DNA of 64,000 bases from Squalus acanthias. Its lineage: Eukaryota. Position 1 is the stretch's first letter. Each line of letters opens with the position of its first letter. Made by a program: the position numbers and the translations under genes. The notes beneath the pieces were generated by a model. It was given only the letters and a program-made list of their open reading frames with translations. It was not told the origin of the DNA and ran no database searches. Positions 44,146-60,855 of this stretch are shown here, piece after piece. Location of the stretch: positions 62,001 to 126,000 of the forward strand of contig JASTWF010000334.1 of NCBI GenBank assembly GCA_030390025.1, written 5' to 3'.

Positions 44146-45517
44146 GACACCTTTGGCGGGCGTCCTCTGGGGTTGCGAACCTGTGAGGGCTCGGCAACAG
44201 TCTGCTGCTACTGCAGCTGTGCAGGGGTTAAGACGCCGATCTCAGTTGGGTGGGGAACCTGGTGTGGGGCTCTGACCGAGGGCTATGCAGTGGCATGGTC
44301 GTGTGAGCGCTTGGAGAGGAGCCCCCACTTCCTTGTTGTATGCCACCAACATCCCTCTCATGGGTCAGCCCCACTTCAGAGCTAGCAAGGGGCTGGACAG
44401 CACCTTGCTGCACTGCAGGTGGGCCATGAGGACCCGTTTCTGCACTGGAAGTCCTACTCCAGAGGACTTGCATGAAGGTCTGGTTTGTTTGCTCAATAGC
44501 TGACCATCGCTCCTCAAGAGATGTCAGTCTATTCTGAACAATTACCATGTTTTCCATACCCTGGCGACTAAGCTCTTCCATGGACATAGCCATCCTCTCC
44601 TCTACCGTAGCCATTCCCTACTCTACGGTAGCTAGCCTTACCAAGGAGGTTTCCATCCTTTCCGTGGTGATGCGTTCATGCGCCAATGCCTTTACAAAGG
44701 CTTTGCTCATGTTAGCGATGGACTCCTCCATTCGCTCCACACTCGCAGCGACCCTGGAGACAAAACCTGCCAGAGACTCCTGCACCTGTTCCTGGAGTTC
44801 CAGCACCGCTCTCCTTCTGGATGGACCCGGAGGCACAGGGTCGACATGCAGCGGAGCTGAGCTGGGAGTGTCCTCTCCACTGCGATGAGGACTCTCCACT
44901 GCTGTTCCTGTCTCCACCATCTGCTGATGCTCACTTGTGAGCTGTGATACACCAGGTGATAACTCTACTCTATGTCCCGAAGGTCCCACCGAGGTGTGAG
45001 TGTCTGCGCTGGTGCTGGGTGCGCTGAATTCTGCTGACGGAGCGCACTCAGAGGTTGCAGCTTCCTCTGAGGAGTCTTGAAGCTCAGGCTCTTCCTCCTG
45101 GACAGTGGGGATGGGGGCTCTCGATGGTCCTGTGGGGGAGTAAAGGAAAGAGTTAGAGATTTGAGGTAAAGGTTGCATGCACATTGAATTGTGCAGATGA
45201 CCATAAGTCAATCTGTTAGAGCATCAGAATCATTATCAGTCACTCATGCAAAGTCAATGAGAGAGATGCCAAACTATTCTGTCACCAGCTTGCTGTGATG
45301 CGCCCCCGTGTCCATCCCCCACTTGGGAATCCTCCTCGATCCCAGCAATTTCCAGGGCCGCCTCCTCCGAGGTGGTGAGCTGGGCTACTGAGGGTGGCGC
45401 TCCTCCTGTCCTCGCTCTTTCCCTCTTATTGTGGGCTCTCTTTTCCTGTAATGAGGGACACAAGTGGAGTTTGAGTGAGAATGAAAGAGTGAGTGTAGAG
45501 AATCCATAGCATAGATG

Positions 45518-47133
45518 TGTAGAATTCGCAATTATCGCGATTTCATTTTATTAAGGAGAAAACACAAGTTTCATTCAAAACAGCTTTTATTTCAGCGGAA
45601 TGCTGTCAGGTTTAAATTGGACACAAGCAGCCTGTAAAATGGCCGCCGCACCGCGTGACAGAACATTCGAGACTTTTCGGCAGGCAGACAAGATGGCGTT
45701 CCAATAAACATTTTTTTTTTGCAGGATCGATAACGATTCAGCACAGTGAAGACAATACACAGGACATTATGGGTTTACAGTATAAACATCGATACTGGGA
45801 TCGGTCTCCCAGGTACAAAGGAAAGCCATCAAGGGCCCATCCAAAGGACATTAATATGTAAACTCCCAACGGCTCTACGATGAGAGAGCCGTTAGCAGGT
45901 AGTTATACAGGACATTTGGAAGCCCCAAACCCCTCCAGGGGGAACACCGACCGATTTAACAATGGGAGAAGTATTAGCAGGTACTCAAACATTCAGGAGT
46001 AGCCCCGAAACCCATTAAAGACAGAGATCACCCATACAGGACTTTTTGGGCGCCAAACCTTAAACAAAAGAATGGACATTATAGTTGGGCGGGAAACGGA
46101 AGAACTGTGCACTATAATTGCAGGCCCAAACCGTCCATTCGCTCTCTTGCTCTTTTGCTCTTGACTCTTGCCGCTTGCTGCTGTTATCATCGTGGCTGCT
46201 CCTGTGTTTTATCCGGTCGATTCGTAACCTCGTGGCTGCTCCTGGGTAAAAGACTGTTGCAAAGACCTATGTTGGTAGCTGGCAGCGGAACCGAAGGCCC
46301 GGGATGAGATGAGATGAGATGAGAGGAGAAGAGAAGAAGACCTTATCCATCGCCACGGTCAGTAAATCCCGACCGCGCCTGTAGGTCGATCAGCCAAGTC
46401 TTCTTGACAACGAAGTTTTCTTCTTTAACAAGACATATTGCATCGACGATAACTGGACTGTGCAAACACATCGTATCAATGATATTGACAACGGTGCTCC
46501 ACCATACCCTGTATCCAACCAACAGAGGTCTTCACTACAGCGGACGGTCCAGCCGACTGACCGAGCAGCAGAAGCAGTAAACAAGTGGGACCAGGAGATC
46601 TCCTGACCAACACGTGGGTGCTGAGGTGGAAAACATCCGATCAGCTATTCGGGATTTCTCCGAGTTATTACGAGTGGTGAGCATGAGTCTCGGGATCCTA
46701 CGAAGCTAGTTTTAGGATAGTTATTGATAGGGGAGGGTTTAAAGTAAGGATATTTGTAATGTGTGCCCTATTTACGTTGTGCTGGTCGTTCCTCGTTTCC
46801 CTAAGAGTGATTATAACTGTTTGTAAGATTGTACTGTCATTCATCTGTGCATATGACATGTATTTCATAATTTTAAGTATCATGCAATAAAGATTTTCCA
46901 TTTCGTACCGTTCAAACCAAGTCTACATGAGTTTTATCTCCATTGCTGCTCTCGCATCTAAGTCCAGTGTCTAGAACCGTAAGGGAGAGTGATTCGAACC
47001 ACTCACAGGGGTGTCTAGTGTTCCCAGACTGGCTGGAGACCAGGCCTAGACCCGCACTGACATACAGGCTGCACAGAGCCGCGTGAACCTCACAGGTTAC
47101 GAGACACGCAGGGTCAGGAGAGTATCCCTTACA
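45518..47133 (+). repeat. 5' LTR (1616 bp)
   Basis: Repeated at a constant offset of 10993. GC box 46087, CGGAAG 46097, TATAAT 46113, AATAAA 46886, YY1-like AAAATGGCCGCC at about 45636. Confidence 0.97.
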
Positions 47134-47137
47134 GAAA

Positions 47138-48949
47138 ATGGCGACCGCGGCAGGACATTGGCAGCGAGAGGGTGGTGTGTTGGATTTTGGAATGACTGTA
47201 CGAAATGTGATGCAGGAAAAGATAGCGGATTACGTGTTTGGAAAGGTTAATCTAACGAAAAAGTGGATAAGCGAACTGTTAGCGGATAAGAGTCCACTAG
47301 AGGCAGCTGAAAGATGGACGGATAGTAAGGAGCATAAAAAGGCAGTTGAGAAAGCAGTCTGGCTTATGTGCTACAAAAGGCAGGTCCAGATTTCTAACCA
47401 GACCAATACAGCGCTAACCGCTCGAATCAAGCAGTTAGAGGAGGAAATGGAGGAGAAGGTTTCTGGAGGGGAGGTGCTCATTAAGAGTTTAAATGAGTTA
47501 CGCCAGGAAAGCCAGGAAGTCTCCAGCTACCTTAAAACAAGGGTAGAGTATCTCGAGTGCCAGATCACTGAAGCAAAATTAAACGAGAATAGGATGAAGG
47601 AAAGATGTAACCGTCAAGCTGCCCAGATAAGAACTCAAGAAGAGAGCTTAATGGGGGTTAGGTCGGCGTATAAGTTGGCCCTTGAGGATAAGTTTCAGGG
47701 AGCCGACCATAGCGCCTGCGAAAAAGAGATAGAGAGCCTCAAAAGGGCCGTGAATAATGCGAACGGCATGGTGTGCCTTATTAATCCGTCGGCACGCCAG
47801 CCGCTAGTAAATGAGAGATTTAGAAATTCCCCACCAAGTAAAGCAGAAGAAGTAGTAGCCACTGCGCCCTCCGCGCCACCCAGCTATTCAGAAACCTGGG
47901 TTAGGGAGGAAGCAACGGAAGAAACAAAAGAGCCCGTTGAAAAGGAAGTAGAAAAGGGATCGTTGTATCCAGTAACGGGGATTAAAAGGGGCCCAAGCAG
48001 AAACGGTGGGGAAGAACCGGGGGATCTCCTCGGACAGCTGGTGTTGCCTCACAGTTCACATCAGCTGAGGGCTATGATAAACCACGTAAGGAAGCTGACC
48101 GAGATAGACGACCCTTCCGTACATTTTAGGGAAGTTGAGCAAGCCGCAGCCATCAACGGCTGCGATGATGGGGAGACAGCAAAAATGCTGCTGTTCTCTT
48201 TAGATAGCTCGGTCCTTCAGTGTCTCTCAGGCGATAGCAAGAGGGGTAATAAAAGTTATGAGGAATTGAAAAATGAGGTCCTAGAAGTAGTGGGAGCGAA
48301 CGACGGAGGTCCGTTTGCTAGAGTGGGACAGACAGTGCAGATGGAGGGAGAACCCCCGAAGGTCTTTGCCGACAGGCTGTGGCCAGTATATGAGCGCAGC
48401 TGTCTAGGTGCGCCCGAGCGCGAAGATGTGGAAGGCGCCGCTTTAATTCATTGGCTTAGGTGCATAATAGCCAACAGTTTACCAGCCGTTAGAGAGCAGG
48501 CAAAAGCCTGGTTCGATCCCAATGACCTCAACCTTACGGAAGAGTCGGTCTTGAATCGACTCACGTTAGGTTACCGTAACATAAGGGGTATGGCAACACG
48601 TCCCTTTAAGGGAAGAGTACATGAGGTACGACCCGCAGCCCCGGCTCAAAGAGAGTGGCATCAGGAGGGTAATCGCGCCCCACAGGCAAGTAATGCCTGT
48701 TACGGGTGTGGGAAGACAGGGCACTGGCGCAAGCACTGCAGGAACCCTTGGAAGGATTCCAAGGATAAGAATCCCGCGGTCCGAGCCCAGGCGCCTGTCC
48801 CGGCTAAGGAAGCAAAGGTACCCACCTCTCCCGAAGACCTCGAAGCAGTGTTAGGAGTCATGCGCAAGATGGTTTTAAATGCGCGTGGACAGGTGGCGGT
48901 CGCAACCGGCCCCGTAGGTGCCGCAGGACCGTCTAATAGTGCCCCATGA
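47138..48949 (+). CDS. gag: Gag (603 aa): coiled coil, PSAPPSY late domain, capsid-like region, one CCHC knuckle
   Basis: CYGCGKTGHWRKHC at 48698-48739; PSAPPSY at 47867-47887; position directly after the LTR/PBS. Confidence 0.92.
   Translation: MATAAGHWQREGGVLDFGMTVRNVMQEKIADYVFGKVNLTKKWISELLADKSPLEAAERWTDSKEHKKAVEKAVWLMCYKRQVQISNQTNTALTARIKQLEEEMEEKVSGGEVLIKSLNELRQESQEVSSYLKTRVEYLECQITEAKLNENRMKERCNRQAAQIRTQEESLMGVRSAYKLALEDKFQGADHSACEKEIESLKRAVNNANGMVCLINPSARQPLVNERFRNSPPSKAEEVVATAPSAPPSYSETWVREEATEETKEPVEKEVEKGSLYPVTGIKRGPSRNGGEEPGDLLGQLVLPHSSHQLRAMINHVRKLTEIDDPSVHFREVEQAAAINGCDDGETAKMLLFSLDSSVLQCLSGDSKRGNKSYEELKNEVLEVVGANDGGPFARVGQTVQMEGEPPKVFADRLWPVYERSCLGAPEREDVEGAALIHWLRCIIANSLPAVREQAKAWFDPNDLNLTEESVLNRLTLGYRNIRGMATRPFKGRVHEVRPAAPAQREWHQEGNRAPQASNACYGCGKTGHWRKHCRNPWKDSKDKNPAVRAQAPVPAKEAKVPTSPEDLEAVLGVMRKMVLNARGQVAVATGPVGAAGPSNSAP
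47139..47156 (+). promoter_or_regulatory. Primer-binding site, tRNA-Arg(UCG)-like
   Basis: TGGCGACCGCGGCAGGAC is complementary to the 3' end of vertebrate tRNA-Arg(UCG) (...GTCCTGCCGCGGTCG-CCA, recalled from memory). Confidence 0.85.
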
Positions 48950-51900
48950 CTAGAACCAGCACAGCCCGTCTACCTGTGTCCGCTCAGCTATGATGCGTGG
49001 AGGCGACCTGTGGTGGAGATGGAGGTAGAGAAACAAAAGGGCAGTTATCTGTTGGACACGGGAGCTTCTTGCACCATAATCCATACAGATGACCCTTTTG
49101 ACTCGCCGCTATCTACCAAGGTCCCATTCACGCTAGCAGGGTTCACAGGGAAAGAACAGGCTGGCACGTTTTCCCTCCCGCTATCCATTCGTTTAGGAAC
49201 ACTTCGCTTTAAGTGGAAGTGTATACTGATGGCATGGCAAAAGGGGGGTGGAAGAGGTATTCTCGGGTCCGATCTGTTAGCGGGACACGGGATCCTCGTG
49301 GACCTCAGAAATCACTGTCTCTGGGGGGCTAAAGGGGAAAAAGGCGAAGTAATGGTGATTCAAGGGGAGGAAGAAACAGGGGTCCTGTGTACCGTACAGC
49401 CATCCGGAGGCTACGACCTCAGGCTTATGGTCGCAGATGTCCCAACGGACATGCAAACGTACGTGACAGATAATATGCACGCGTTTGCAACCCACAAGCA
49501 CGATTGTGGGAGGGTGGTCGGGTTTGAGGTCAGCGTAGATGGGGACCCCATGACCCGACCCCAAAAGCAGTATAACTTCCCCAAAGAAGCAGAACCCGAT
49601 ATGGAGGCAGCAATGTCTTCCTTGGTGCAGCAGGGCGTGTTGAGGCCGATAGCCACACACGTGAACTCCCCATTATGGCCGGTTAGGAAGCCGGATAATT
49701 CGTGGAGAGCCACGGTGGACTACAGAGTCCTTAACAGTAACATCCCCGCCTGCGCGCCCACAGTAGCAGCAGTTGCTGACCTAATAGGGAGCATCCCAGC
49801 GTCCGCGACCACGTTCACGGTGCTGGATATCTCGAACGGTTTTTGGTCCATCCCGCTGCGGCGAGAGGACCAGTACAAGTTTGCCTTTACGTTTAAAGGG
49901 CAACAGTACACGTGGAACTGCTTGCCACAAGGTTTCCACAATAGCCCCAGTATTTTTCACCAGTGTATGGCAGGGAGTTTAAAGGAGTTTAGTCAGCCCA
50001 ATCAGATAGTACAGTATGTGGATGATTTGCTCCTATTTACGGACTCAAGGGAGGAGCACGGACCACTGCTGGACGAGTTATTGGAGCTGTTAGCGAGAAA
50101 GGGTTTTAAAGTAAACCCAAAGAAAGCACGTATCGGTCAGCAGGAAGTAAAATTCCTGGGACTGACCCTACGCGCTGGGGAAAGAGCCATAGACAAAGCA
50201 AGGAGGGAGTCGGTGCAAGAATTACCGATTCCCAACAACGTAAGGGGTGTGAGGTCCTTCTTGGGACTGACCGGTTACTGCAGGGATTTTATCGAGGATT
50301 ATGCGGCCACAGCGGCGCCGCTCCTCCGACTCCTCCATAAGGGAGTAGAGTGGCTTTGGGACGAGGGCTGCCAAGCAGCCTTCGAGAAGTTAAAAAGGGA
50401 TCTGCAGACCGCGCCAGCCTTAGGGGCCATAGATGGGGGGAAGGAGTTTTTCCTGGAGGTAGCTGCCAGCGGAGACAGTTTAAGTGCCGTGCTGCTCCAA
50501 GAGCGTCACGGCAAGCTGAGGCCGGTTGTCTATTCATCCAGGGTATTAACGGATGTGGAGAGGAGTTTTTCCAATTGCGAAAGGCACCTTTTAGCCACGC
50601 ATTGGGCTGTGAAAAGATCAGCGATCTTCACAGGGCTCTCTCCCATCACTCTCCTCACACATCACACACCAACTAAGATGCTTCTGGATGGGAGGATTAA
50701 AGACGGGACCGTAAGCAGCGCACGCATTGCGCGTTGGACCCTTCTTCTCTCCCAGTTGGACATCAGAGTAAAAGGTCTTTGCGAGCCCAGGCTTGCGGCC
50801 AATTTGGTATACCCCGGTACAGCCCACCGGTGTTCGGTGGAGGGGGTGTGGGACGTCAACATAGGTTTACGGGCCGGGATACATCCCAATGGGCGCGAGA
50901 TTTATGTTGATGGGTCTAGCACAGTATCTGCTGGCGAGCGACTCACAGGGTGTGGAGTTTATGACCCTGCGGCAGACCTTGCCCTGGCGATCAAGCTCCC
51001 TAGCACCATGAGCGCGCAGCAGGCTGAGCTGTCTGCCGTGGTGTACGTGGTAACCCACCCAGACATTTTCCCAACCCCATACACGATTTGCTCGGACAGT
51101 ATGTTCACCTGCAATTCGTGTACGGAATACCTGGCCATCTGGTCCCGCCGTGGATACACCTCCGCGGACGGGCGACCTTTAACGGTAAAGCCCTTGCTGG
51201 AAAAGATCTTAGCAGCAGCAGTAGGGGAGGAAGGGGAGATTTTCATCCATAAGGTGAAAGCTCACTCCTCCACAGAGCCCCGTGGGGAGGGCAACCGGCA
51301 GGCGGATGCGCTAGCCAGGGAGGGTGCCCGCGACGGTACTTTCTGGAACCCCTATAGAACCGGACCCATAGCAGCGGTCCGAGGTGGGGACGGGAATACC
51401 GGGAACACCAGGGTAGCATTGCCCCTAGACCTTAAGACCGTCCAAGCCCAGGATCCCGCCCTAAAAGCAGTCCTAAAAACGATTGCTGAGGGGAGGCAGG
51501 TAGAAGGTCCGTACAGTACGGCAACCCTCTCAGTTAAGGAAGGCATGCTGTTCCGCGAGGAGCAGTGGGTTGTGCCGCAGCAGCACAGGAGGGAATTCCT
51601 CCAGTTGGCTCACGAGGGACCAGGGGCAGGGCACCCCGGGCCCGAGGTTACCTGGCAACGGGTAGAGCAAGCGGGATGGTGGCCAGGGCTCAGGGAACAA
51701 GTCCGCGAGTTCTGTGCAAACTGTCTTGTGTGCGCTGCAAACAACCCAGACCCCCAGAAAAGGAAGGTGCCCATGGGACACGTAAGAAGGGTAGAGGGAC
51801 CATGGCAGTCGATACAGATCGACTATATAGGACCCCTGCCCACCACCCAGGGAGGTTATAAGTACTGCCTCGTCCTGGTGGATGTGTTTTCCAAGTGGGT

Positions 51901-53452
51901 GGAAGCCTTCCCTTGTCGAACAGCTACGGCACTGGGTACAGCAAAAATCTTGGTCCGGGAAGTGTTCTCGCGGTGGGGACTCCCCCGTTTCGTGGAGTCA
52001 GACCAAGGGAGTCATTTCACCGGCCAGGTGATGCAGAACACCCTCATGCTTTTGGGCATTGAAGGGAAGTGGCACGTAGCACACAATCCCCAGTCATCCG
52101 GGATTGTTGAACGTATGAACCGGACCCTGAAGGAGAAATTGAGGAAAGAGACTAGGAACTCGCCCCAAAAATGGGCGGAAGTTCTGCCTTTAGTCCTCAT
52201 GGGGGTCCGGGCCAGTCAGTCAAAAAGTACGGGGTACTCCCCGCACGAGGTAATGACCGGCAGGCTCATGCGAACCCCCACCCATGTGCTAGCCCCGGTG
52301 CTCACTGAGGGTCAGCTTCAAGAGATCAGCAGGGACAAGTTCGCCCAAACTCTCTTGGAGCGCCTGAAGCAAGTTTATGAGCAGGCGGCTGGGAACATGG
52401 GAAGGCAGCACCAGGGCAATCGCTTGTTGCTGGAACCCCGCAAAACGCGGGAGTGGGAAGTAGGAGACCAGGTCATGGTCAGAAACTACGCCAGAGTAGG
52501 GAGTCTGGAACCACTGTATATGGGACCCTACAACATTGTAGACAAGGCAAGTCCCATGGTTTACGCCGTAAAAGTACCTCGGCGCACTAAGTGGTTCCAC
52601 ATAAACCAATGTAAACTGTACCAGCCGGGTGCGCAAGGGAAAACTACAGGGGTAAATCCCGCCAACGGGAAAACACAGCCCCAGGTAGGACCACAAGGCA
52701 CACAGGCAGGCGTAGCAGCTTGCATCAGGGGAAGGGACATCCCGGACGATCATGCAGCGTTTTTCTGGAGTTGGGGGTTAGATGACGAGGACCCCAGGGT
52801 ACCCTGGTCAGATGAGGATAGTGCAGATGAGCATAGTGATGATGACGGGTGGTTTCACAGGAACGGTCTGGAAGGATTGGGGCCGCTAGGTAGAGATCCA
52901 TACGGGGTGGACACACAAGCTGCAGGTCCCGACAGCAGGAGGAAGGAGCTAGAGGAGGCCGGGCCAGCCGCTATGTGGTTCCCAGAGGTGTGGCCGCCCG
53001 CTGTAAACGTCCAGTCCTCAGGGGAGGCAGAGTTCGCGAGTGAAGGGCCGCCTGCTGGGCCGAGCAGGGCGGGGCCCCGAACTGCCAGCCCCGAGGTTAG
53101 GGAGGCGGAGTCAGCGGAGGCGGGGCTGGCGCCTGTGATGGAACCCCAGGTCATCCCGTTGAAGGTCTCGGGACCCGGTCCGTCCGTCACGGAGCCCCCG
53201 CCCATAGCAGTTCCCCGTAGGTCAAGCAGAGCACCCCAGCCCAGGAAGACGTGGTCAGGTCCACAGGATGCCCCAGGGCGTAAGTTTCAGATTAAGATAA
53301 CCCGGGTAGAGACAGGCCACATCGAAGCAGTAACAGGCTGCGGCAGATCAGAGGAAAGGGTCAGCGCAGCAACAGGCTGCGGCAGATCAGAAGGAAGGGT
53401 CAGTGCCCTCCCACCGTCGGGAAGAGCTCGCAGCAGCCTTCTCAGGATTTAA
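48950..53452 (+). CDS. pol: Pol (PR-RT-tether-RNase H-IN plus long C-terminal tail), in frame with gag
   Basis: LLDTGA protease; LPQGFHNSP and YVDD RT; degenerate RH then IYVDGS/AELSA/SDS/ADALA RH; HHCC, DDE and GPY integrase. Confidence 0.96.
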   Translation, partial: LEPAQPVYLCPLSYDAWRRPVVEMEVEKQKGSYLLDTGASCTIIHTDDPFDSPLSTKVPFTLAGFTGKEQAGTFSLPLSIRLGTLRFKWKCILMAWQKGGGRGILGSDLLAGHGILVDLRNHCLWGAKGEKGEVMVIQGEEETGVLCTVQPSGGYDLRLMVADVPTDMQTYVTDNMHAFATHKHDCGRVVGFEVSVDGDPMTRPQKQYNFPKEAEPDMEAAMSSLVQQGVLRPIATHVNSPLWPVRKPDNSWRATVDYRVLNSNIPACAPTVAAVADLIGSIPASATTFTVLDISNGFWSIPLRREDQYKFAFTFKGQQYTWNCLPQGFHNSPSIFHQCMAGSLKEFSQPNQIVQYVDDLLLFTDSREEHGPLLDELLELLARKGFKVNPKKARIGQQEVKFLGLTLRAGERAIDKARRESVQELPIPNNVRGVRSFLGLTGYCRDFIEDYAATAAPLLRLLHKGVEWLWDEGCQAAFEKLKRDLQTAPALGAIDGGKEFFLEVAASGDSLSAVLLQERHGKLRPVVYSSRVLTDVERSFSNCERHLLATHWAVKRSAIFTGLSPITLLTHHTPTKMLLDGRIKDGTVSSARIARWTLLLSQLDIRVKGLCEPRLAANLVYPGTAHRCSVEGVWDVNIGLRAGIHPNGREIYVDGSSTVSAGERLTGCGVYDPAADLALAIKLPSTMSAQQAELSAVVYVVTHPDIFPTPYTICSDSMFTCNSCTEYLAIWSRRGYTSADGRPLTVKPLLEKILAAAVGEEGEIFIHKVKAHSSTEPRGEGNRQADALAREGARDGTFWNPYRTGPIAAVRGGDGNTGNTRVALPLDLKTVQAQDPALKAVLKTIAEGRQVEGPYSTATLSVKEGMLFREEQWVVPQQHRREFLQLAHEGPGAGHPGPEVTWQRVEQAGWWPGLREQVREFCANCLVCAANNPDPQKRKVPMGHVRRVEGPWQSIQIDYIGPLPTTQGGYKYCLVLVDVFSKWVEAFPCRTATALGTAKILVREVFSRWGLPRFVESDQGSHFTGQVMQNTLMLLGIEGKWHVAHNPQSSGIVERMNRTLKEKLRKETRNSPQKWAEVLPLVLMGVRASQSKSTGYSPHEVMTGRLMRTPTHVLAPVLTEGQLQEISRDKFAQTLLERLKQVYEQAAGNMGRQHQGNRLLLEPRKTREWEVGDQVMVRNYARVGSLEPLYMGPYNIVDKASPMVYAVKVPRRTKWFHINQCKLYQPGAQGKTTGVNPANGKTQPQVGPQGTQAGVAACIRGRDIPDDHAAFFWSWGLDDEDPRVPWSDEDSADEHSDDDGWFHRNGLEGLGPLGRDPYGVDTQAAGPDSRRKELEEAGPAAMWFPEVWPPAVNVQSSGEAEFASEGPPAGPSRAGPRTASPEVREAESAEAGLAPVMEPQVIPLKVSGPGPSVTEPPPIAVPRRSSRAPQPRKTWSGPQDAPGRKFQIKITRVETGHIEAVTGCGRSEERVSAATGCGRSEGRVSALPPSGRARSSLLRI

Positions 53453-53735
53453 AGGGGCCGCCCTGAGAACGGGCGGCATTGTAAAGTTATTAGTTTAAGG
53501 TTTTAAGTTTTAGTTTAAAGTTTTAAGTAGTTTTAATAAGTTTAAGTTTGTAGTGGTTTTAACAGATAACGACAAATGATGGGAGTTTTAAGGCTAGGTT
53601 TAGAGGAAGTCTGTTCAGCAAACGTTGAAGTTTACGTGAGGCGAGGTCAGGGGACCCGCTCACCCTTCACAAAAGCCAGAGACTTTTTGCGAGGCTGGCT
53701 ACCTCATTCTATCTGATCACAGGAACCAAGGAAGG

Positions 53736-56087
53736 ATGGAACGACTCATAGTATTGCTCGTGGCAATCGGATGTGGATTGGCCTATCGGGGCCTCACCAA
53801 GGATGTCGTGGTGTTTGGATGTTCCGGGGACACGGCCCCCATCGCGGTGGATGGGACCGGGAGACGGAAGGCAGAAGGGACCAGCACCTATTTCCACAAG
53901 GGAAGGTGGCCAGGATGGCTGGGAACGAACTCAACGGAGTATTCCAGCACATCGGGGTTCGCCTACAAAGAGACTTCTTTAATGTGCCCCAAAGTACGGA
54001 TCATCGCACCCAGGATCAGCGTCACCGTCGGCAAACGGATTTGTTTGACTTGCAGTGGGAATGTCCCATTGAGCCGATGGTGGTGGCTGCGAAAGCTGAG
54101 CAAAACTATGAGGAACTCTTCGGTTGAGTGGGAGCGACTGGGTAATAATACCCATCGGACAATTACGGGGACTGATGGACAAGTGAAAGTCTGTTGGGAC
54201 AAATGGTGGGAACCAGATGAGGGGATTTATGTTTGTATGTGGGGGTCAAAGTACGTTTGCCCCAAAGGCATCTCCATATTCTTTATTAACCAGTGGCAGG
54301 ATAACGGACAGGGGATGAGGTGGGATGCGAGCACCAGGGGGTGCGGAGCCCCATTCTCCCCGATCCCAGTAAATGCCACTGAGCTCATTACGCGCCCACG
54401 CAAAGCCCCGCCCACGATTCCGGTAGTTCTAACTGAGGAAGAAGGGTGCCCTAAAACTAGTAAGGGACCCGGGAACGGTTTGGTACTGGTCCCCACAGAC
54501 CAGATACTATTTCAGGGGGTGCATTACGCGGTGGCCTCGGTGATTTTAAATCTCACTGAGGTACGGTTACCAGAGTGGTGCCCCAAAAAGACGGAACAGT
54601 TGTACCAGGTCCTGTTGACCAAGATGTTCAGGCAGTTTTACGAGTTCGATTTCGCGGAAATTGATAAGACAAGTTTATACACCGCACCGCAGGAAGTTTT
54701 GGACCAAGTTGGGAGGCAAAGAAGGGGTTTGGTGAACGATGCGTTCACTGCTTTTAACACAGGGACATCTGTGGTCAACGCTCTAGACAGTGTGGAGCTG
54801 CAGACCCAGATTAATGGTTTAAAAACACAGTTAAAGGATATTCTCACAGATGAGAATAAAGTGGTAGGGTCGGGTCTGCACGAGGACCAAGCCATGACAC
54901 TACACTTAAAAGAGATTATAGCAGAGCTGGAGAAACATGCGCGTACGGTAAATGCCCTGATTAGGGAAGATCGGAATGCATCCGATCAAGCTGCGCAGAA
55001 CGAGGTGTGCGTGCTTTACGGGGCGTGGTTACTGGGCGAGGGCCGCAGTAATTTGGAGGATTTAAAACAAGGTTTGGTCCCGTCCTGGATAAGTAACAAA
55101 CACCTGCGGGCGCTCCACCCTTTTCAGAATGCATTAAGTCCGTGCCAGCTCAGGCTAGCTTCAGAAGCTTACCCAGTCCCCGTGGACTGCGGACGTTCAA
55201 ACCATACTATTATGGGAATAGTATTACGCATGCCGGTTTTGGGCAACACAGCAAAGCCCGCCCCGGTGTATCGGGTAGAGAACATTGGTGTCATTCAGGG
55301 GGGAGCCCACATTCGTTATGCAGCGGTTCCACCTTACGTCATCCGCTGGGAGCAAACGATGACAGGTACAGATCTCTCTGGTTGTCGTGGCAGGGGAGCA
55401 CACATAATACTGTGCCCCCAGCACTTGAATGCCTTTTTAACACCACAGTGCGGGTTCAGAACGGCTGGCGCCAAGTCCATGAATTGCACCATGGAGGCAA
55501 TGGCACAAGATCATGTGCCTCCGCAGGTAGCATACATCGGGGGTGGAACATATTGTGTTACCACTGCAGCGCAACACTACCAGCATGGAAACCGTAGCCG
55601 GTGTCCGGTGAGTGACAGCAGTTTCTGTTTTAAACCCAGGGCTGAAGTTCAAGTAGCACAACAGCGAATTATCCCAATCCCTGAACCATCCACTGTTCAT
55701 CTCACAGTAAAAGAGAATTTTACCGACTTGCAGCGATTTGTCGCACATTTTGGGTACCTCATTCCCCCTCTCCCTGAGCATTTAACCAAACTTCTGAAGG
55801 CCGTCGCGGTGTCACAAAAGCATTTCTATACTTTAGAACAGAAAACCGTCGAGATAGGTACAGACATTTTGGACATAGTGGTTCCACCGTGGTGGAATCT
55901 GTTCACGAATATTGAAGTGCCCTCATGGGTCAGAATAGCCTCCCACATTTTAGTCGTATGTCAAGTGTTTATTGTAGTATACCTTTTGTTTATACATTGT
56001 AAAAGAGACAAGCGCCTCACCAAGCATGAGAACACGGGAGAGTGGCGAGAACGTTACGTGCGCGTGCACGATGAGAGCGCAGTGTAA
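53736..56087 (+). CDS. env: Env-like glycoprotein (783 aa): signal peptide, Ig-like domain, RQRR furin site, fusion peptide/heptad, Cys-rich region, TM anchor
   Basis: Hydrophobic N-terminus; acceptor ...atcacAG at 53721-53722; RQRR|GLVNDAF at 54714-54725; several N-X-S/T sequons; TM IASHILVVCQVFIVVYLLFI. Confidence 0.92.
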   Translation: MERLIVLLVAIGCGLAYRGLTKDVVVFGCSGDTAPIAVDGTGRRKAEGTSTYFHKGRWPGWLGTNSTEYSSTSGFAYKETSLMCPKVRIIAPRISVTVGKRICLTCSGNVPLSRWWWLRKLSKTMRNSSVEWERLGNNTHRTITGTDGQVKVCWDKWWEPDEGIYVCMWGSKYVCPKGISIFFINQWQDNGQGMRWDASTRGCGAPFSPIPVNATELITRPRKAPPTIPVVLTEEEGCPKTSKGPGNGLVLVPTDQILFQGVHYAVASVILNLTEVRLPEWCPKKTEQLYQVLLTKMFRQFYEFDFAEIDKTSLYTAPQEVLDQVGRQRRGLVNDAFTAFNTGTSVVNALDSVELQTQINGLKTQLKDILTDENKVVGSGLHEDQAMTLHLKEIIAELEKHARTVNALIREDRNASDQAAQNEVCVLYGAWLLGEGRSNLEDLKQGLVPSWISNKHLRALHPFQNALSPCQLRLASEAYPVPVDCGRSNHTIMGIVLRMPVLGNTAKPAPVYRVENIGVIQGGAHIRYAAVPPYVIRWEQTMTGTDLSGCRGRGAHIILCPQHLNAFLTPQCGFRTAGAKSMNCTMEAMAQDHVPPQVAYIGGGTYCVTTAAQHYQHGNRSRCPVSDSSFCFKPRAEVQVAQQRIIPIPEPSTVHLTVKENFTDLQRFVAHFGYLIPPLPEHLTKLLKAVAVSQKHFYTLEQKTVEIGTDILDIVVPPWWNLFTNIEVPSWVRIASHILVVCQVFIVVYLLFIHCKRDKRLTKHENTGEWRERYVRVHDESAV

Positions 56088-56498
56088 TGAGAAGATGGCG
56101 TCACTCCCGCTCGCCACGTGCGCCGCGGAAGTTTGTACTCAGTGTAAATACGTTGGAAACTCGACATGTTTAAGAGTCGGGATTTGTTTATTTCGGTGAT
56201 GGTGTTGATTGTTTGGTTTTTTGGGTTTTGTTTTTCCTTTCCCTGAATAAAAGATAAATATACAGGTGATGCGTGAGGTATCGGCCTGGTTACGCCGGGA
56301 AGGAAAACAAGTGGTGTAAGTTTAAGGGCAAATGATGCCTATGGTGATATAAAGTGTGATTTTCTTGGGAAATAAGGACGACACAGAGACCCTAGTGAAG
56401 TTAAAATTTTATGGGATTAATTTACTGGATTCGGAGTGAAATCGAGATAAGATTGCTCACCACTGAGTTTTGATACGATAAGCGGAGTTATTCGCATC

Positions 56499-56510
56499 AA
56501 CAGGAGGGAC
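56499..56510 (+). promoter_or_regulatory. Polypurine tract
   Basis: aacaggagggac immediately before the 3' LTR. Confidence 0.7.
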
Positions 56511-58126
56511 TGTAGAATTCGCAATTATCGCGATTTCATTTTATTAAGGAGAAAACACAAGTTTCATTCAAAACAGCTTTTATTTCAGCGGAATGCTGTC
56601 AGGTTTAAATTGGACACAAGCAGCCTGTAAAATGGCCGCCGCACCGCGTGACAGAACATTCGAGACTTTTCGGCAGGCAGACAAGATGGCGTTCCAATAA
56701 ACATTTTTTTTTTGCAGGATCGATAACGATTCAGCACAGTGAAGACAATACACAGGACATTATGGGTTTACAGTATAAACATCGATACTGGGATCGGTCT
56801 CCCAGGTACAAAGGAAAGCCATCAAGGGCCCATCCAAAGGACATTAATATGTAAACTCCCAACGGCTCTACGATGAGAGAGCCGTTAGCAGGTAGTTATA
56901 CAGGACATTTGGAAGCCCCAAACCCCTCCAGGGGGAACACCGACCGATTTAACAATGGGAGAAGTATTAGCAGGTACTCAAACATTCAGGAGTAGCCCCG
57001 AAACCCATTAAAGACAGAGATCACCCATACAGGACTTTTTGGGCGCCAAACCTTAAACAAAAGAATGGACATTATAGTTGGGCGGGAAACGGAAGAACTG
57101 TGCACTATAATTGCAGGCCCAAACCGTCCATTCGCTCTCTTGCTCTTTTGCTCTTGACTCTTGCCGCTTGCTGCTGTTATCATCGTGGCTGCTCCTGTGT
57201 TTTATCCGGTCGATTCGTAACCTCGTGGCTGCTCCTGGGTAAAAGACTGTTGCAAAGACCTATGTTGGTAGCTGGCAGCGGAACCGAAGGCCCGGGATGA
57301 GATGAGATGAGATGAGAGGAGAAGAGAAGAAGACCTTATCCATCGCCACGGTCAGTAAATCCCGACCGCGCCTGTAGGTCGATCAGCCAAGTCTTCTTGA
57401 CAACGAAGTTTTCTTCTTTAACAAGACATATTGCATCGACGATAACTGGACTGTGCAAACACATCGTATCAATGATATTGACAACGGTGCTCCACCATAC
57501 CCTGTATCCAACCAACAGAGGTCTTCACTACAGCGGACGGTCCAGCCGACTGACCGAGCAGCAGAAGCAGTAAACAAGTGGGACCAGGAGATCTCCTGAC
57601 CAACACGTGGGTGCTGAGGTGGAAAACATCCGATCAGCTATTCGGGATTTCTCCGAGTTATTACGAGTGGTGAGCATGAGTCTCGGGATCCTACGAAGCT
57701 AGTTTTAGGATAGTTATTGATAGGGGAGGGTTTAAAGTAAGGATATTTGTAATGTGTGCCCTATTTACGTTGTGCTGGTCGTTCCTCGTTTCCCTAAGAG
57801 TGATTATAACTGTTTGTAAGATTGTACTGTCATTCATCTGTGCATATGACATGTATTTCATAATTTTAAGTATCATGCAATAAAGATTTTCCATTTCGTA
57901 CCGTTCAAACCAAGTCTACATGAGTTTTATCTCCATTGCTGCTCTCGCATCTAAGTCCAGTGTCTAGAACCGTAAGGGAGAGTGATTCGAACCACTCACA
58001 GGGGTGTCTAGTGTTCCCAGACTGGCTGGAGACCAGGCCTAGACCCGCACTGACATACAGGCTGCACAGAGCCGCGTGAACCTCACAGGTTACGAGACAC
58101 GCAGGGTCAGGAGAGTATCCCTTACA
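56511..58126 (+). repeat. 3' LTR (1616 bp)
   Basis: All five small ORF translations and the T10 run match the 5' LTR. Confidence 0.97.
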
Positions 58127-58950
58127 GATGTTTAGAAGGAGACAAAGGGCCCTCCCTGTGTGTTGTAAGTTGTTGTCATTGTGTCACAGTGATAGGGAGT
58201 GTGAGGGCTGTATGGTCGAATAGTTAAGTGAATGTGACCATAGAGAGAGAGGGAATGGGTAAGGGTGCAGGGATGTCAGTGTCAAGTGGGATGTGGAGGA
58301 AGAGGTTGGCAAAGCTGAGTGCTGGTGAAGAGAGGCGCTGGGGATCAGATTGAGGGTGATGGGAAAGTCATACTCACTTTTCCTGCGCAGAGAAGTTCAT
58401 GAAACCTCTTCCTGCACTGCAGCCAGGTTCTGCGGCTCATTGATATGGAGTTGACCTCCTGGGCCACTTGCAGCCACACAGCTTTAGTCTGTTGTGGTGG
58501 CTTTTTTCTCCCTGAGGAAGGGAAGAGCACCTCGTTATTAGATCTTGCTCCCTGCACCAGAGCTTGGAGGGAGGGCTCATCAAAGCGAGGTGCACACTTT
58601 TGCTTGCTGGTGGACATGGTCGGTAAATGAAGTCCTTCATACAATGTCCAAAGCGTTTCCAGTCTCCAGAAGAATCAAGGCTGCTTGCAGGCCTTAAATC
58701 CAACAGCATTGATGAGGTCATCGGAAGCGACTTTCAGGATGGAAAGACTCATTGGGCTAGTGGTTCCCACACGCAGGAAATCAATTTCCCAATTAGGGGA
58801 AAATCCCACTTTTCCAACACATCACTTAGGAGTCGGGGTCCTGACACGATTTCCACCTGACACGCCCCAGCCCGCCCACACTGACAAAATCCAGCCCTAT
58901 GATTCTATATTGTCATCGTTTGACAGCTCTGTGAAGCTGTCAAACACTGA

Positions 58951-59590
58951 GGGCAGAATTTTCATTGACCCGTGGAGGCGGGTTTGGAGGCATGTGGGGT
59001 GGGAAAATAGCAGATTCGGGGGTCCCGAACCCATCCCGCCCCCAACCCGCCTCCATGCCAGTTTCGCTGGAGGTGGGTACCCGACCTGTGCTGGGACCCG
59101 CTTCCCCGAGGTGAGAAGGGGATTAGTGCCAATAAACTGCCTGTTAACAGGTAGTTAACAGGCAGTTTTTTGCCTAATCCCTATTTTTGGCCCTGAAGTG
59201 TGGGCTTCCCGACAGGTCCGAACCACGCCGATTTAGCGATGCGGACCGTCGGTCTGGAGGGCTTGGAGGGGTCGAGATGTCCGATGTGCAGGTGAGTGAT
59301 GGGTGCATGAGTGCAGAGGTAAGTGTGTTTGGTGTGTGTAAAGTGTTTTAAGAACTTGTACTTATCTTAACTTTGTCCTGCAGGCTAAGGTGTCGGGAGT
59401 CCCTCACATCCACAGCACCGAAAGCAGAATGGCCGCGGAGCTGTCAAAAGCTGCAGTCTCTGCTTTCTGTGCTGGATGGATTTCTAACTGAGTCCAAGTA
59501 CAGGGACTCACGTTAGAAATCATATTGTCAGTGTTTGACAGCTTCACAGAGCTGTCAAACGCTGAAATTTCATCTGACAAAATCCAGCCC
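58951..59590. mobile_element. Harbinger-type MITE with TGA target-site duplication; a related copy follows at 59621-60287
   Basis: tga|gggcagaatttt...aaaatccagccc|tga; internal similarity between the copies. Confidence 0.72.
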
Positions 59591-60855
59591 TGACATTCTG
59601 TGTAGTTTGATCAGACCTTAGGGGCCCAATTTTCCAAGCCCCGTGGAGGCGGGTTTGGAGGCGGGAGTGGTGGGAAAATTGCAGATTCGGGGGGCACGTA
59701 CCCATCCCGCCCCAAACCACGTCAAGTTAGCGAGGTGGACCGTCAGTCTGGAGGGCTTGGAGGAGTCGAGATTACCGGTGTACAGGTGAGTGATGGGTGC
59801 ATGAGTGCAGAGGTAAGTGTATTTGGTGTGTGTAAAGTGTTTTAATAAGTTTTACTTACCTTTACTTTCTCCTCCAGGCTTCCTCCCTTCAGTTCTCGGG
59901 AGGCCCTCAGCTCACCGGCACAGAAAGCAGAATGGCCGCGGAGCTGTCAAAAGCTGCAGCCTCTGCTTTCTGGTCTGGAGAGCTCTCTAACTGAGTCTGA
60001 GTAGAAGGACTCAAGTTAGAAGACAGATTGTCAGTGTTTGACAGCTTCACAGAGCTGTCAAACGCTGATATTTCATCTGTCAAAAGCTCTTGACAGATGA
60101 AATGTCAATCGCTTACGTCACCAGTATCCAGGTGTCCCTTAATTGACCTGCTAAGCCCGCTGGGCGGGCTTAACAAGGTCAATCAAGGGAAAGTAGCGTG
60201 GGTTGGCCACAAATCGATGGAGGCGGGACTGCAACCCAAAAAGTGGGAGTCCCGCCTCCATCACGTCCCCATTGACAAAATCGAGCCCTTTGTGTTCAGG
60301 ACTCATCAAACCTTTCAACTTGGCAGAAATCACCTGGCTGTTGGTGCGGAGGATCCAACAGCCAATCTGTGAAATCTACAATGGAGATGTCGGGACTCCA
60401 GCTCCACAGTGGCTGAAGGCTGTAGGCAGAAACAAAGGTAAGTAAACATTTTATAACACTTTACACTCACCTCACATACTTACCACTCCACACTTGCACC
60501 CATCACTCACCTCTACATTGCACTTTCAGACCCCTCCGAACCCTGCAGACCTCCTACTGATCTCCTACACCCTGGTGGGGTTCCCCGAGGTCGGAAAGCC
60601 TGCACGTCGGAAGGAAAAATGGGTATAATCCTATTTTCTGCCTGTTAACTACCTGTTAACAGGCAGTTAATAGGCTTTAATCCCTTTCCCGCCTCAAGGA
60701 GACGGGACCCAGGGCAGGACAGCTTCTCGCCTCCTGGCAAGAAGGCACGGAGGCGGGATGGGGGTGGGTTTGCCACCCGCCCCAAATTCTGCAACTTTAC
60801 CAGCAGTCCCGCCTCCATACCCGCCTCCTTGGTGCTGACAAAATCCAGCCCTTTT

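Follow-up and report, generated by a model that had tools for sequence, protein, structure and literature searches.

We examined a provirus at positions 45518..58126 of a 64,000-nucleotide stretch of Squalus acanthias DNA (assembly GCA_030390025.1, contig JASTWF010000334.1, positions 62,001 to 126,000 of the forward strand), which is hereafter called the window. An earlier note on this DNA had described the element as an intact, very young provirus of a lokiretrovirus-like lineage. With moderate confidence, we favor the reading that it belongs to a young, multi-copy family of a distinct, deep retroviral lineage present in sharks and frogs. In this lineage, the Pol polyprotein falls on the canonical side of the split between lokiretroviruses (lokis) and other retroviruses, and the Env protein is of the lokiretrovirus type, resembles the fusion (F) proteins of paramyxoviruses and pneumoviruses, and carries an added N-terminal region.

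The element has the canonical Retroviridae layout LTR-PBS-gag-pol-env-PPT-LTR, with long terminal repeats (LTRs), a primer-binding site (PBS) for a tRNA, a polypurine tract (PPT) and a short target-site duplication (Table 1). A search for direct repeats and a comparison base by base revealed 0 differences separating the 5' LTR from the 3' LTR, each of 1616 bp. The structural features listed in the earlier note were all recovered, namely two difference-free LTRs, a 4-bp target-site duplication, an 18-nt PBS, a PPT, and gag, pol and env without frameshifts. The duplication reads GATG on both flanks, the PBS is complementary to host tRNA-Arg(TCG), the PPT is a short purine run, and all three frames are open, with a single in-frame TGA dividing gag from pol. 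Its report of two RNase H domains plus an env agrees with the Pfam assignments (RT_RNaseH and RNase_H) and with an env of 783 aa. Dual RNase H domains are common to all retroviruses.

The placement of Pol was evaluated with trees of reverse transcriptase (RT) plus tether, and with trees extending from RT to integrase (IN). Gamma/epsilon-like and gypsy rows were taken from the search for Pol relatives. Rows for foamy-like endogenous retroviruses (ERVs) came from the shark's own genome by way of Pfam Spuma protease and Foamy Env matches, and exogenous foamy virus Pols (simian foamy virus and human spumaretrovirus, SFV/HSRV) were retrieved with one such ERV as query, whose protease-RT-RNase H frame is 40-41% identical to the simian/human foamy virus Pol. 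Snakehead retrovirus (SnRV) corresponds to locus L056, which was found in viral_contigs with an alignment of shark and frog Pols, whereas a single-protein scan of viral_contigs gave no match; it was recognised because its pol contains exactly the RT sequence to which the supplement of PMC7947760 gives the label SnRV. Lokis are represented by three proxies (L058-L060), which are metagenome records found with a degenerate pattern for the loki RT motif of the same paper. In two of these proxies, Env matches PF00523 weakly (E 0.0022 and 1.2e-5, both below the Pfam cut-off). Rows that were near-duplicates or short fragments, and some with long branches, were left out of the trees; P0188 was dropped from later trees, and eight and thirteen rows were removed before the RT+tether tree with lokis and the RT-to-IN tree, respectively.

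When the RT+tether tree was computed without lokis (41 rows), the element and its frog relatives were located outside a clade of foamy and gamma/epsilon-like rows (support 98/96), which SnRV joins once it is added. With lokis included (37 rows, careful search), a branch supported at 100/99 separates the loki proxies and gypsy from all other rows. The canonical side of this branch holds the element, the frog sequences, SnRV, and the foamy and gamma/epsilon-like rows, and the element groups there with the frogs at 77/57. Similarly, in the RT-to-IN tree (32 rows, 993 columns, careful search) a single loki proxy is sister to a non-loki clade with 100/99 support. SnRV is grouped with gamma/epsilon-like rows in this tree (85/73), and the element lies outside the class I-like (gamma/epsilon-like) clade (98/96). 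A foamy clade comprising SFV/HSRV and the own-genome foamy-like ERVs has 100/100 support, and in none of the three careful trees does it include the element.

Therefore, Pol was found with the canonical retroviruses, here foamy, SnRV and gamma/epsilon-like rows only, and not with lokis or Ty3/gypsy (100/99), and it did not fall inside the loki clade as judged against the proxies. A nesting of RT within Gypsy, an outcome considered in the earlier note, is contradicted by the position of the element opposite gypsy across the 100/99 branch. The characteristics of foamy viruses (Pol inside their clade; PF03539 and PF03408) and those of class I elements (Pol position, PF18697 and a gamma-type Env) were likewise not those of the element. 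Approximately unbiased (AU) tests that held the shark and frog sequences together gave p 0.129 for RT+tether and p 0.58 for RT-to-IN, the held tree being 1.07 log-likelihood units (lnL) better in the latter case. Adding SnRV to this group gave p 0.056 for RT+tether and p 0.012 for RT-to-IN (26 lnL), and adding lokis instead gave p 0.058 and p 0.017, at a cost of 23 lnL. Judged from these sequence comparisons, the shark-frog Pol lineage apparently lies near the split between lokis and canonical retroviruses, and apparently not inside the lokis.

The frog connection is also seen in database searches with Pol. The nearest Pols outside the family are frog 'NYNRIN-like' models, which are 41-43% identical across 93-95% of the query. 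One frog Pol (P0009) continues at its C-terminus into the start of a frog protein of the same Env type, and therefore the frog Pol and Env appear to be parts of one element. By eye, the RT of another (P0010, Aquarana catesbeiana) is unlike that of Loki-Rca, suggesting that these relatives differ from the frog lokis already published. The closest solved integrase is that of prototype foamy virus (PFV; E 1.4e-33), and no match to PF18697, the integrase C-terminus of the murine leukaemia virus type, was present in Pol.

The Env protein was evaluated by alignment, structure prediction and profile comparison. An alignment of 13 Envs reveals five invariant cysteines, a basic cleavage site, a hydrophobic stretch past it, a long helix and, at the C-terminus, an anchor. 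In the AlphaFold model of the window Env, the mean predicted local distance difference test (pLDDT) score is 53.5, with residues 236-310 and 410-650 at 70-88. A Foldseek search of the PDB with this model yielded 226 matches at E<=0.001, and the top matches (8.6e-10 to about 1e-6) are the F proteins of human parainfluenza virus 3, respiratory syncytial virus, Newcastle disease virus, Nipah virus and Hendra virus. The foamy virus Env 8rm0_A (3.1e-6) has the lowest root-mean-square deviation, 6.8 over 286 columns. As modelled, Env has a paramyxovirus/pneumovirus F-like fold. In contrast, no PF00523 match was found in the window Env or in P0004 at E<=10, or in 16 relatives at E<=1. A PF00523 scan of the source genome, run with a strict first filter under which the controls also gave no signal, returned no match and so does not show that lokis are missing there. 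The Mononegavirales-F-like Env proposed in the earlier note is thus borne out by fold but not by a PF00523 match in the sequence. A profile of the 13 Envs gave only chance-level matches to PDB sequences (best E 0.14), and an ESM Atlas search with Env returned one chordate cluster at 0.84, which is a lead only.

Comparisons between Env profiles were more informative. Set against the Env of L059, which is loki-type and itself matches PF00523 weakly, the shark-frog profile gave an alignment of 356 columns (hhalign probability 98.3%, E 2.6e-14); against the SnRV Env it gave one of 358 columns (79.4%, E 1.5e-5). By the first alignment, the window Env is homologous to the lokiretrovirus-type Env. 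The second suggests that SnRV too may carry an F-type Env, although a BLASTP comparison of the window and SnRV Envs was insignificant (E 0.053); no statement of an F-type Env in SnRV was found in the literature examined. The alignment of the SnRV env product (L056:6131-9535) with the shark-frog Envs covers the CP..GP..G motif as well as a furin site with GLG directly after it.

All Env relatives recovered are from elasmobranchs or frogs. Identities are 62-75% for Rhinoraja, Pristiophorus and Scyliorhinus torazame, and about 28-32% for Mustelus, Chiloscyllium and Heterodontus; the frog relatives are from Pelodytes, Mantella and Xenopus tropicalis. This restriction to sharks, skates and frogs is in accord with the cartilaginous-fish host that had been guessed from the sequence. 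Hints that the N-terminal region of Env may be Ig-like (Table 1) extend to two relatives, one with a V-set match (P0123, E 0.045) and one named 'Ig-like domain-containing' (P0101).

To place the provirus among its genomic copies, the genome (3.7 Gb, 3882 contigs) was searched with the LTR, and 40 of 3303 first-look candidates were scored. This search gave 43 matches with 95-100% identity, many of them paired ~10.99 kb apart; the provirus is one of many copies. Eleven further proviruses were taken from other contigs as the best LTR matches, a sample that is biased towards young copies. Among the resulting 12 proviruses, the number of substitutions between a copy's own LTRs is 0 in seven (one of which has 3 indels), 1 in four and 6 in one; for the 11 copies outside the window, the corresponding counts are six, four and one. 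Exact 4-bp duplications flank 10 of the 12 proviruses (9 of the 11 outside the window), and three long open frames are retained in 7 of the 12. Two of the 12 copies have a pol frame that is shorter by 13 codons, and in 11 of the 12 the gag frame begins at the same position directly behind the 5' LTR.

Because near-identical LTR pairs recur across the family on chromosome-scale contigs, an assembly artefact, which the earlier note had raised as a possible source of the LTR identity, is unlikely: 11 of the 12 proviruses have 0 or 1 LTR substitution. The LTRs of other copies are 95.8-98.3% identical to the window LTR. Since copies that differ by 2-4% nonetheless have near-zero divergence between their own LTRs, several lineages all appear to have been integrating recently. 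A substitution rate of 0.5e-9 per site per year is assumed for a catshark in PMC10699275. By our own arithmetic with this assumed rate, zero differences over 2 x 1616 sites correspond to an insertion less than ~1.9 million years ago at the 95% level. These findings agree with the description of the provirus as intact-looking and very young, given its open genes, identical LTRs and a family with near-zero LTR divergence, and the family is possibly still active. However, nothing in the present analysis supports the further suggestion that the provirus may be replication-competent.

Two of the 12 proviruses share an internal pol deletion of ~3.4 kb. These copies (L033, G000:C11:75311564-75320912; L034, G000:C603:733754-743033) have open gag and env frames, different target duplications, and 1 substitution between the LTRs of each pair. 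They look like a deleted derivative that was mobilised by the family's own proteins.

Assembled contigs from public sequencing runs were also compared with the window. Contigs in runs X1, X2, X6 and X17 link 45512-45524 with 58126-58145. The provirus is inserted within a very high-copy repeat (window 44300-45517 and 58131-59400), for which contig depth in the public runs summed to hundreds of thousands in two organisms, and therefore the joining contigs are most simply other uninterrupted copies of this flanking repeat rather than an empty allele. In X6, which is from another organism, most of the LTR is uncovered, a result that is uninformative because it concerns assembled contigs only. Run X17, guessed to be RNA, includes contigs of 258-398 nt over pol, env and the LTR with 0-5 differences, which can be read as a weak sign of transcription at most. 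Nearby, at window 58940-59997, there are direct repeats whose period is ~500 bp.

Table 1. Features of the provirus and its flanks, in window coordinates.
Feature	Positions	Strand	Basis or remark
Left target-site duplication, GATG	45514..45517	+	sequence comparison
5' LTR, TG...CA, 1616 bp	45518..47133	+	AATAAA at 46886, TATAAA-like at 45781
gag, 603 aa, stop TGA	47138..48949	+	reading frame
Primer-binding site, 18 nt	47139..47156	+	five bases past 5' LTR; overlaps first codons of gag
Gag helical, coiled-coil-like part, aa 64-212	47328..47773	+	weak Pfam; BLASTP to SnRV Gag; low-confidence model
Gag zinc knuckle CX2CX4HX4C	48698..48739	+	motif; Pfam zf-CCHC E 0.31 only
gag TGA then CTAG, putative read-through site giving Gag-Pol	48947..48953	+	sequence context
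pol, in the frame of gag, 1500 codons stop to stop	48950..53452	+	reading frame
Protease active-site DTGA	49055..49066	+	motif; weak Pfam gag-asp_proteas match
Reverse transcriptase (RVT_1)	49682..50170	+	Pfam
Tether, degenerate first RNase H (RT_RNaseH)	50357..50755	+	Pfam, Pol residues 474-579
Second RNase H	50897..51328	+	Pfam RNase_H, Pol residues 627-770
Integrase: zinc domain, core, SH3-like C-terminal part	51572..52621	+	Pfam; SH3_Tf2-1 match weak
Pol tail, 276 aa, P/G/A/R/S/E-rich, without known domain	52622..53449	+	Pfam, composition
env, 783 aa, frame differing from gag/pol	53736..56087	+	reading frame
Possible Ig-like surface-subunit region, aa 88-167	53997..54236	+	Pfam Ig_3 E 0.43; model confidence low
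Conserved CP...GP..G motif at start of F-like core	54447..54479	+	Env alignments
Putative RQRR furin-type cleavage site, residues 327-330	54714..54725	+	motif, alignment
Putative fusion-peptide-like hydrophobic stretch	54726..54788	+	alignment
Long heptad-repeat helix past fusion peptide, aa 352-444	54789..55067	+	AlphaFold model
Env membrane anchor, aa 732-754	55929..55997	+	alignment
Polypurine tract, short, abutting 3' LTR	56499..56510	+	purine-rich run
3' LTR, identical to 5' LTR, 1616 bp	56511..58126	+	repeat search
Right target-site duplication, GATG	58127..58130	+	sequence comparison

No confident Pfam domain was found in Gag or in Env. The coiled-coil Pfam matches of Gag are weak (E 0.08-4), and its single-sequence AlphaFold model has long helices with a mean pLDDT of 40.8, which is too low to judge a capsid fold. 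A BLASTP match to the SnRV Gag, also weak, spans the N-terminal and coiled-coil part (E 2e-4), whereas no significant BLASTP match was obtained to the gag-like open reading frame (ORF) of L059. The coiled-coil Gag of the earlier note is consistent with this long helical N-terminal region. In the window, in L059 and in SnRV, gag and pol share one frame behind one stop codon. In the window and L059 (3736-3742), gag ends with TGA-CTAG and pol continues in frame, whereas SnRV has TAG followed by GGC. The TGA is retained in 10 of 10 copies with the exact upstream context; the two copies that lack this context were left unscored. A TGA-CTAG context favours read-through.

The first ATG of gag overlaps the PBS (window 47138-47156), such that no leader separates the two. 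A packaging signal and a splice donor would therefore need to reside in the long LTR or inside gag. The 3' end of the priming tRNA was predicted from the PBS and used in a pattern search of the genome, with tRNA calls made by ARAGORN. A tRNA-Arg(TCG) gene (L057, G000:C23:51291270-51291420) was identified whose last 15 nt plus CCA form the exact complement of the PBS. The predicted T-arm and acceptor end, which is the 3' end of tRNA-Arg(TCG), is present 424 times genome-wide. Most of these copies belong to long tandem arrays with a period of ~1623 bp on contig G000:C26 at about 38.99-42.21 Mb, where they form a very large tandem tRNA gene cluster. A shorter first pattern gave 561 matches, among them older proviral LTR-PBS junctions with a changed PBS; six loci recovered with this pattern yielded no tRNA and no Rfam family. 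At L010:1400-1560 there is an older LTR-PBS junction related to the provirus family whose PBS has one changed letter. As judged from such junction sequences, older layers of the provirus family, or of its kin, exist in the genome.

These features suggest how the element might replicate. Transcription would begin within the long LTR, and host tRNA-Arg(TCG) would prime minus-strand DNA synthesis at the PBS. Gag would be translated from the ATG that overlaps the PBS, and occasional read-through of the gag TGA within TGA-CTAG would yield a Gag-Pol protein with protease, RT, tether, RNase H and integrase, the last of which would produce the 4-bp target duplications. Env would presumably be made from a spliced mRNA. 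It is predicted to be a class I fusion protein that, after putative cleavage at the RQRR site, would present a fusion peptide and a membrane subunit of ~450 aa with the paramyxovirus/pneumovirus F fold. The extra N-terminal region, which is possibly Ig-like, might serve in receptor binding.

Given that Pol and Env point in different directions, several other classifications were weighed against the distinct shark-frog lineage. Lokiretroviruses have been defined by three features, namely the sister position of their RT to every known retrovirus, the dual RNase H, and an Env similar to PF00523 (Wang and Han, Mol Biol Evol 2021; PMC7947760). The lokiretrovirus-like assignment of the earlier note holds with respect to the homology and fold of Env, but not with respect to Pol, where the loki proxies split off at 100/99 and the AU test on the longer alignment disfavors a union. 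The element might nonetheless be a divergent lokiretrovirus, with its Pol placement an artefact of sparse sampling, in which the loki tree is represented by one to three proxies from a single region. Like lokis, it has the LTR-gag-pol-env layout, dual RNase H and some copies with identical LTRs; its Env has a fusion peptide as well as a furin site, and its F-like membrane subunit is long; and the N-terminus of its Gag is helical and coiled-coil-like. Some loki members have an SMC/Spc7-like coiled-coil gene or region, with which the weak coiled-coil matches of Gag permit no firm comparison. The element also shares the TGA-CTAG gag stop context with L059, and an SH3_Tf2-1-like IN C-terminus is present in both the window and the loki proxy. 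However, the proxies are separated from the element at 100/99 in two alignments. By hand count over the first 109 aligned residues, the window RT is ~34% identical to Loki-Xtr and Loki-Pfl versus ~48% to SnRV. The absence of PF00523 matches, the ~235-aa extra N-terminus of Env, the chondrichthyan host and the difference between the frog relatives and published frog lokis (P0010 versus Loki-Rca) also set it apart. We consider this explanation unlikely, though it retains some weight.

Some of the evidence nevertheless weighs against our preferred placement in a distinct lineage. Outside the family, the best RT-to-IN BLAST score is that of a loki proxy (542 bits), ahead of P0164 (502), P0011 (484), SnRV (457) and foamy viruses (about 320). 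The RT-alone AU test rejects neither the loki union nor the SnRV union, and the p values of 0.017 and 0.012 obtained with the longer Pol alignment are only moderately below 0.05. The non-loki clade begins with an unresolved four-way fork, whose arms are the element family, the frogs, the foamy viruses, and a group of SnRV and gamma/epsilon-like rows. The trees hold only three loki proxies (RT) or one (Pol), which were identified by motif, weak PF00523 matches and by-eye Env resemblance, and they are without a published lokiretrovirus consensus. They are also without alpha, beta, delta, lenti and ERV-L references, such that the canonical side consists of foamy, SnRV and gamma/epsilon-like rows. 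Finally, the mean pLDDT of the Env model is low, and residues 1-235 are unmodelled.

A relationship with SnRV must also be considered, in which the element would be a young member of a known SnRV-related group such as 'clade Huo' (Xu et al. 2018) or lineage I of the elephant-shark ERVs termed CmiERV (Han 2015). SnRV, likewise from a fish, has the same single-frame gag-stop-pol arrangement, a coiled-coil N-terminal Gag with a CCHC knuckle, and a PBS located directly past U5. Its primer is tRNA-Arg. The fingers and palm of RT contain long motifs identical to those of SnRV, which by path is also the closest row outside the family in the RT trees, and the SnRV Env is probably homologous according to the profile alignment. 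Han (2015) reports that elephant-shark ERVs, estimated to be >50 million years old, cluster near SnRV, and Xu et al. (2018) give the SnRV-related clade, which they name 'clade Huo', the widest host range. In contrast, the AU test with the longer Pol alignment rejects a shark-frog-SnRV clade, SnRV is instead drawn to the gamma/epsilon-like rows, and Pol identity to SnRV is only 32% and 29% overall. Unlike the window element, SnRV ends gag with TAG and has an Env of 1134 aa with further ORFs downstream, and the Env BLASTP comparison is insignificant. The position of SnRV is itself unsure, as it is a single long branch (1.6), and SnRV alone represents this group in the trees. Membership in an SnRV-related group, including Huo-clade ERVs and CmiERVs, is unlikely, though it too retains some weight.

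The same host pattern, sharks plus a frog, is reported in a study of foamy-like ERVs (FLERVs) for the CmiFLERV/XtrFLERV clade (Aiewsakun and Katzourakis 2017; PMC5512871). Moreover, the integrase is PFV-like by sequence score, with PFV integrase its best solved relative, and the foamy Env fusion subunit is also F-like (PMC11468914), the foamy structure 8rm0 giving the lowest deviation from our model. However, the foamy clade is supported at 100/100 without the element, Gag has a CCHC knuckle, pol is in the frame of gag, and there is no room past env for accessory genes. Spuma protease and Foamy_virus_ENV Pfam matches are absent from the window proteins, whereas 49 and 11 matches, respectively, occur elsewhere in the genome. 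We regard a foamy-like identity as exceedingly improbable. True foamy-like ERVs are present in the same genome (L047-L055). Another possibility is that a canonical-type gag-pol backbone acquired a lokiretrovirus env by recombination, as the nearest groups of Pol and of Env disagree. Since the frog relatives share both the Pol type and the Env type, any such swap would be old, and because the SnRV and foamy Envs are F-like or probably so, inheritance fits as well as capture. A recombinant origin in this sense seems distinctly unlikely. The reading that we retain is the distinct shark-frog lineage with a canonical-side Pol and a loki-type Env.

Supplementary Figure S1 of PMC7947760 lists lokis in 0 of 6 chondrichthyan genomes, in agreement with the view of the earlier note that this host group is not known to have been reported for that lineage. 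As in ERVi (PMC10435555, Nat Commun 2023), the two LTRs are identical and the gag, pol and env genes are open; ERVi is additionally insertionally polymorphic. The Figure 2 legends of that study name 37 orders, none of them chondrichthyan, though 13 such genomes were screened. Fernandez et al. (2024; PMC11468914), who describe the structure of foamy Env, do not mention lokiretroviruses in the sections examined. In our literature search, which covered articles but few of their supplements, no account of an F-like Env in a retrovirus of chondrichthyans was found.

Among the jawed vertebrates, cartilaginous fishes branch deepest, and recent retroviral activity in them is almost unrecorded in the literature examined. 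The family described here unites a canonical-side Pol with a loki-type F-like Env, and has LTR pairs that are nearly identical in many copies, together with open frames for gag, pol and env. It makes testable, with existing sequences, whether the F-like Env was inherited from an ancestor common to lokis, SnRV, foamy viruses and the shark-frog elements, or was captured several times. For structural work, it also supplies a naturally occurring class I fusion protein that bears an additional N-terminal module. A broader proposal, which we put forward tentatively and with the balance lying against it, is that the shark-frog elements constitute an unnamed major lineage beside the split between lokis and canonical retroviruses, and that the F-type fusion protein they still carry is the same as in lokis, probably in SnRV and, judged by fold, in foamy viruses. 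If this is true, an F-type Env would be ancestral to retroviruses as a whole and would have been replaced later in the orthoretroviruses, and the near-zero LTR divergence in many copies would imply present or very recent circulation, in elasmobranchs, of a virus belonging to this lineage.

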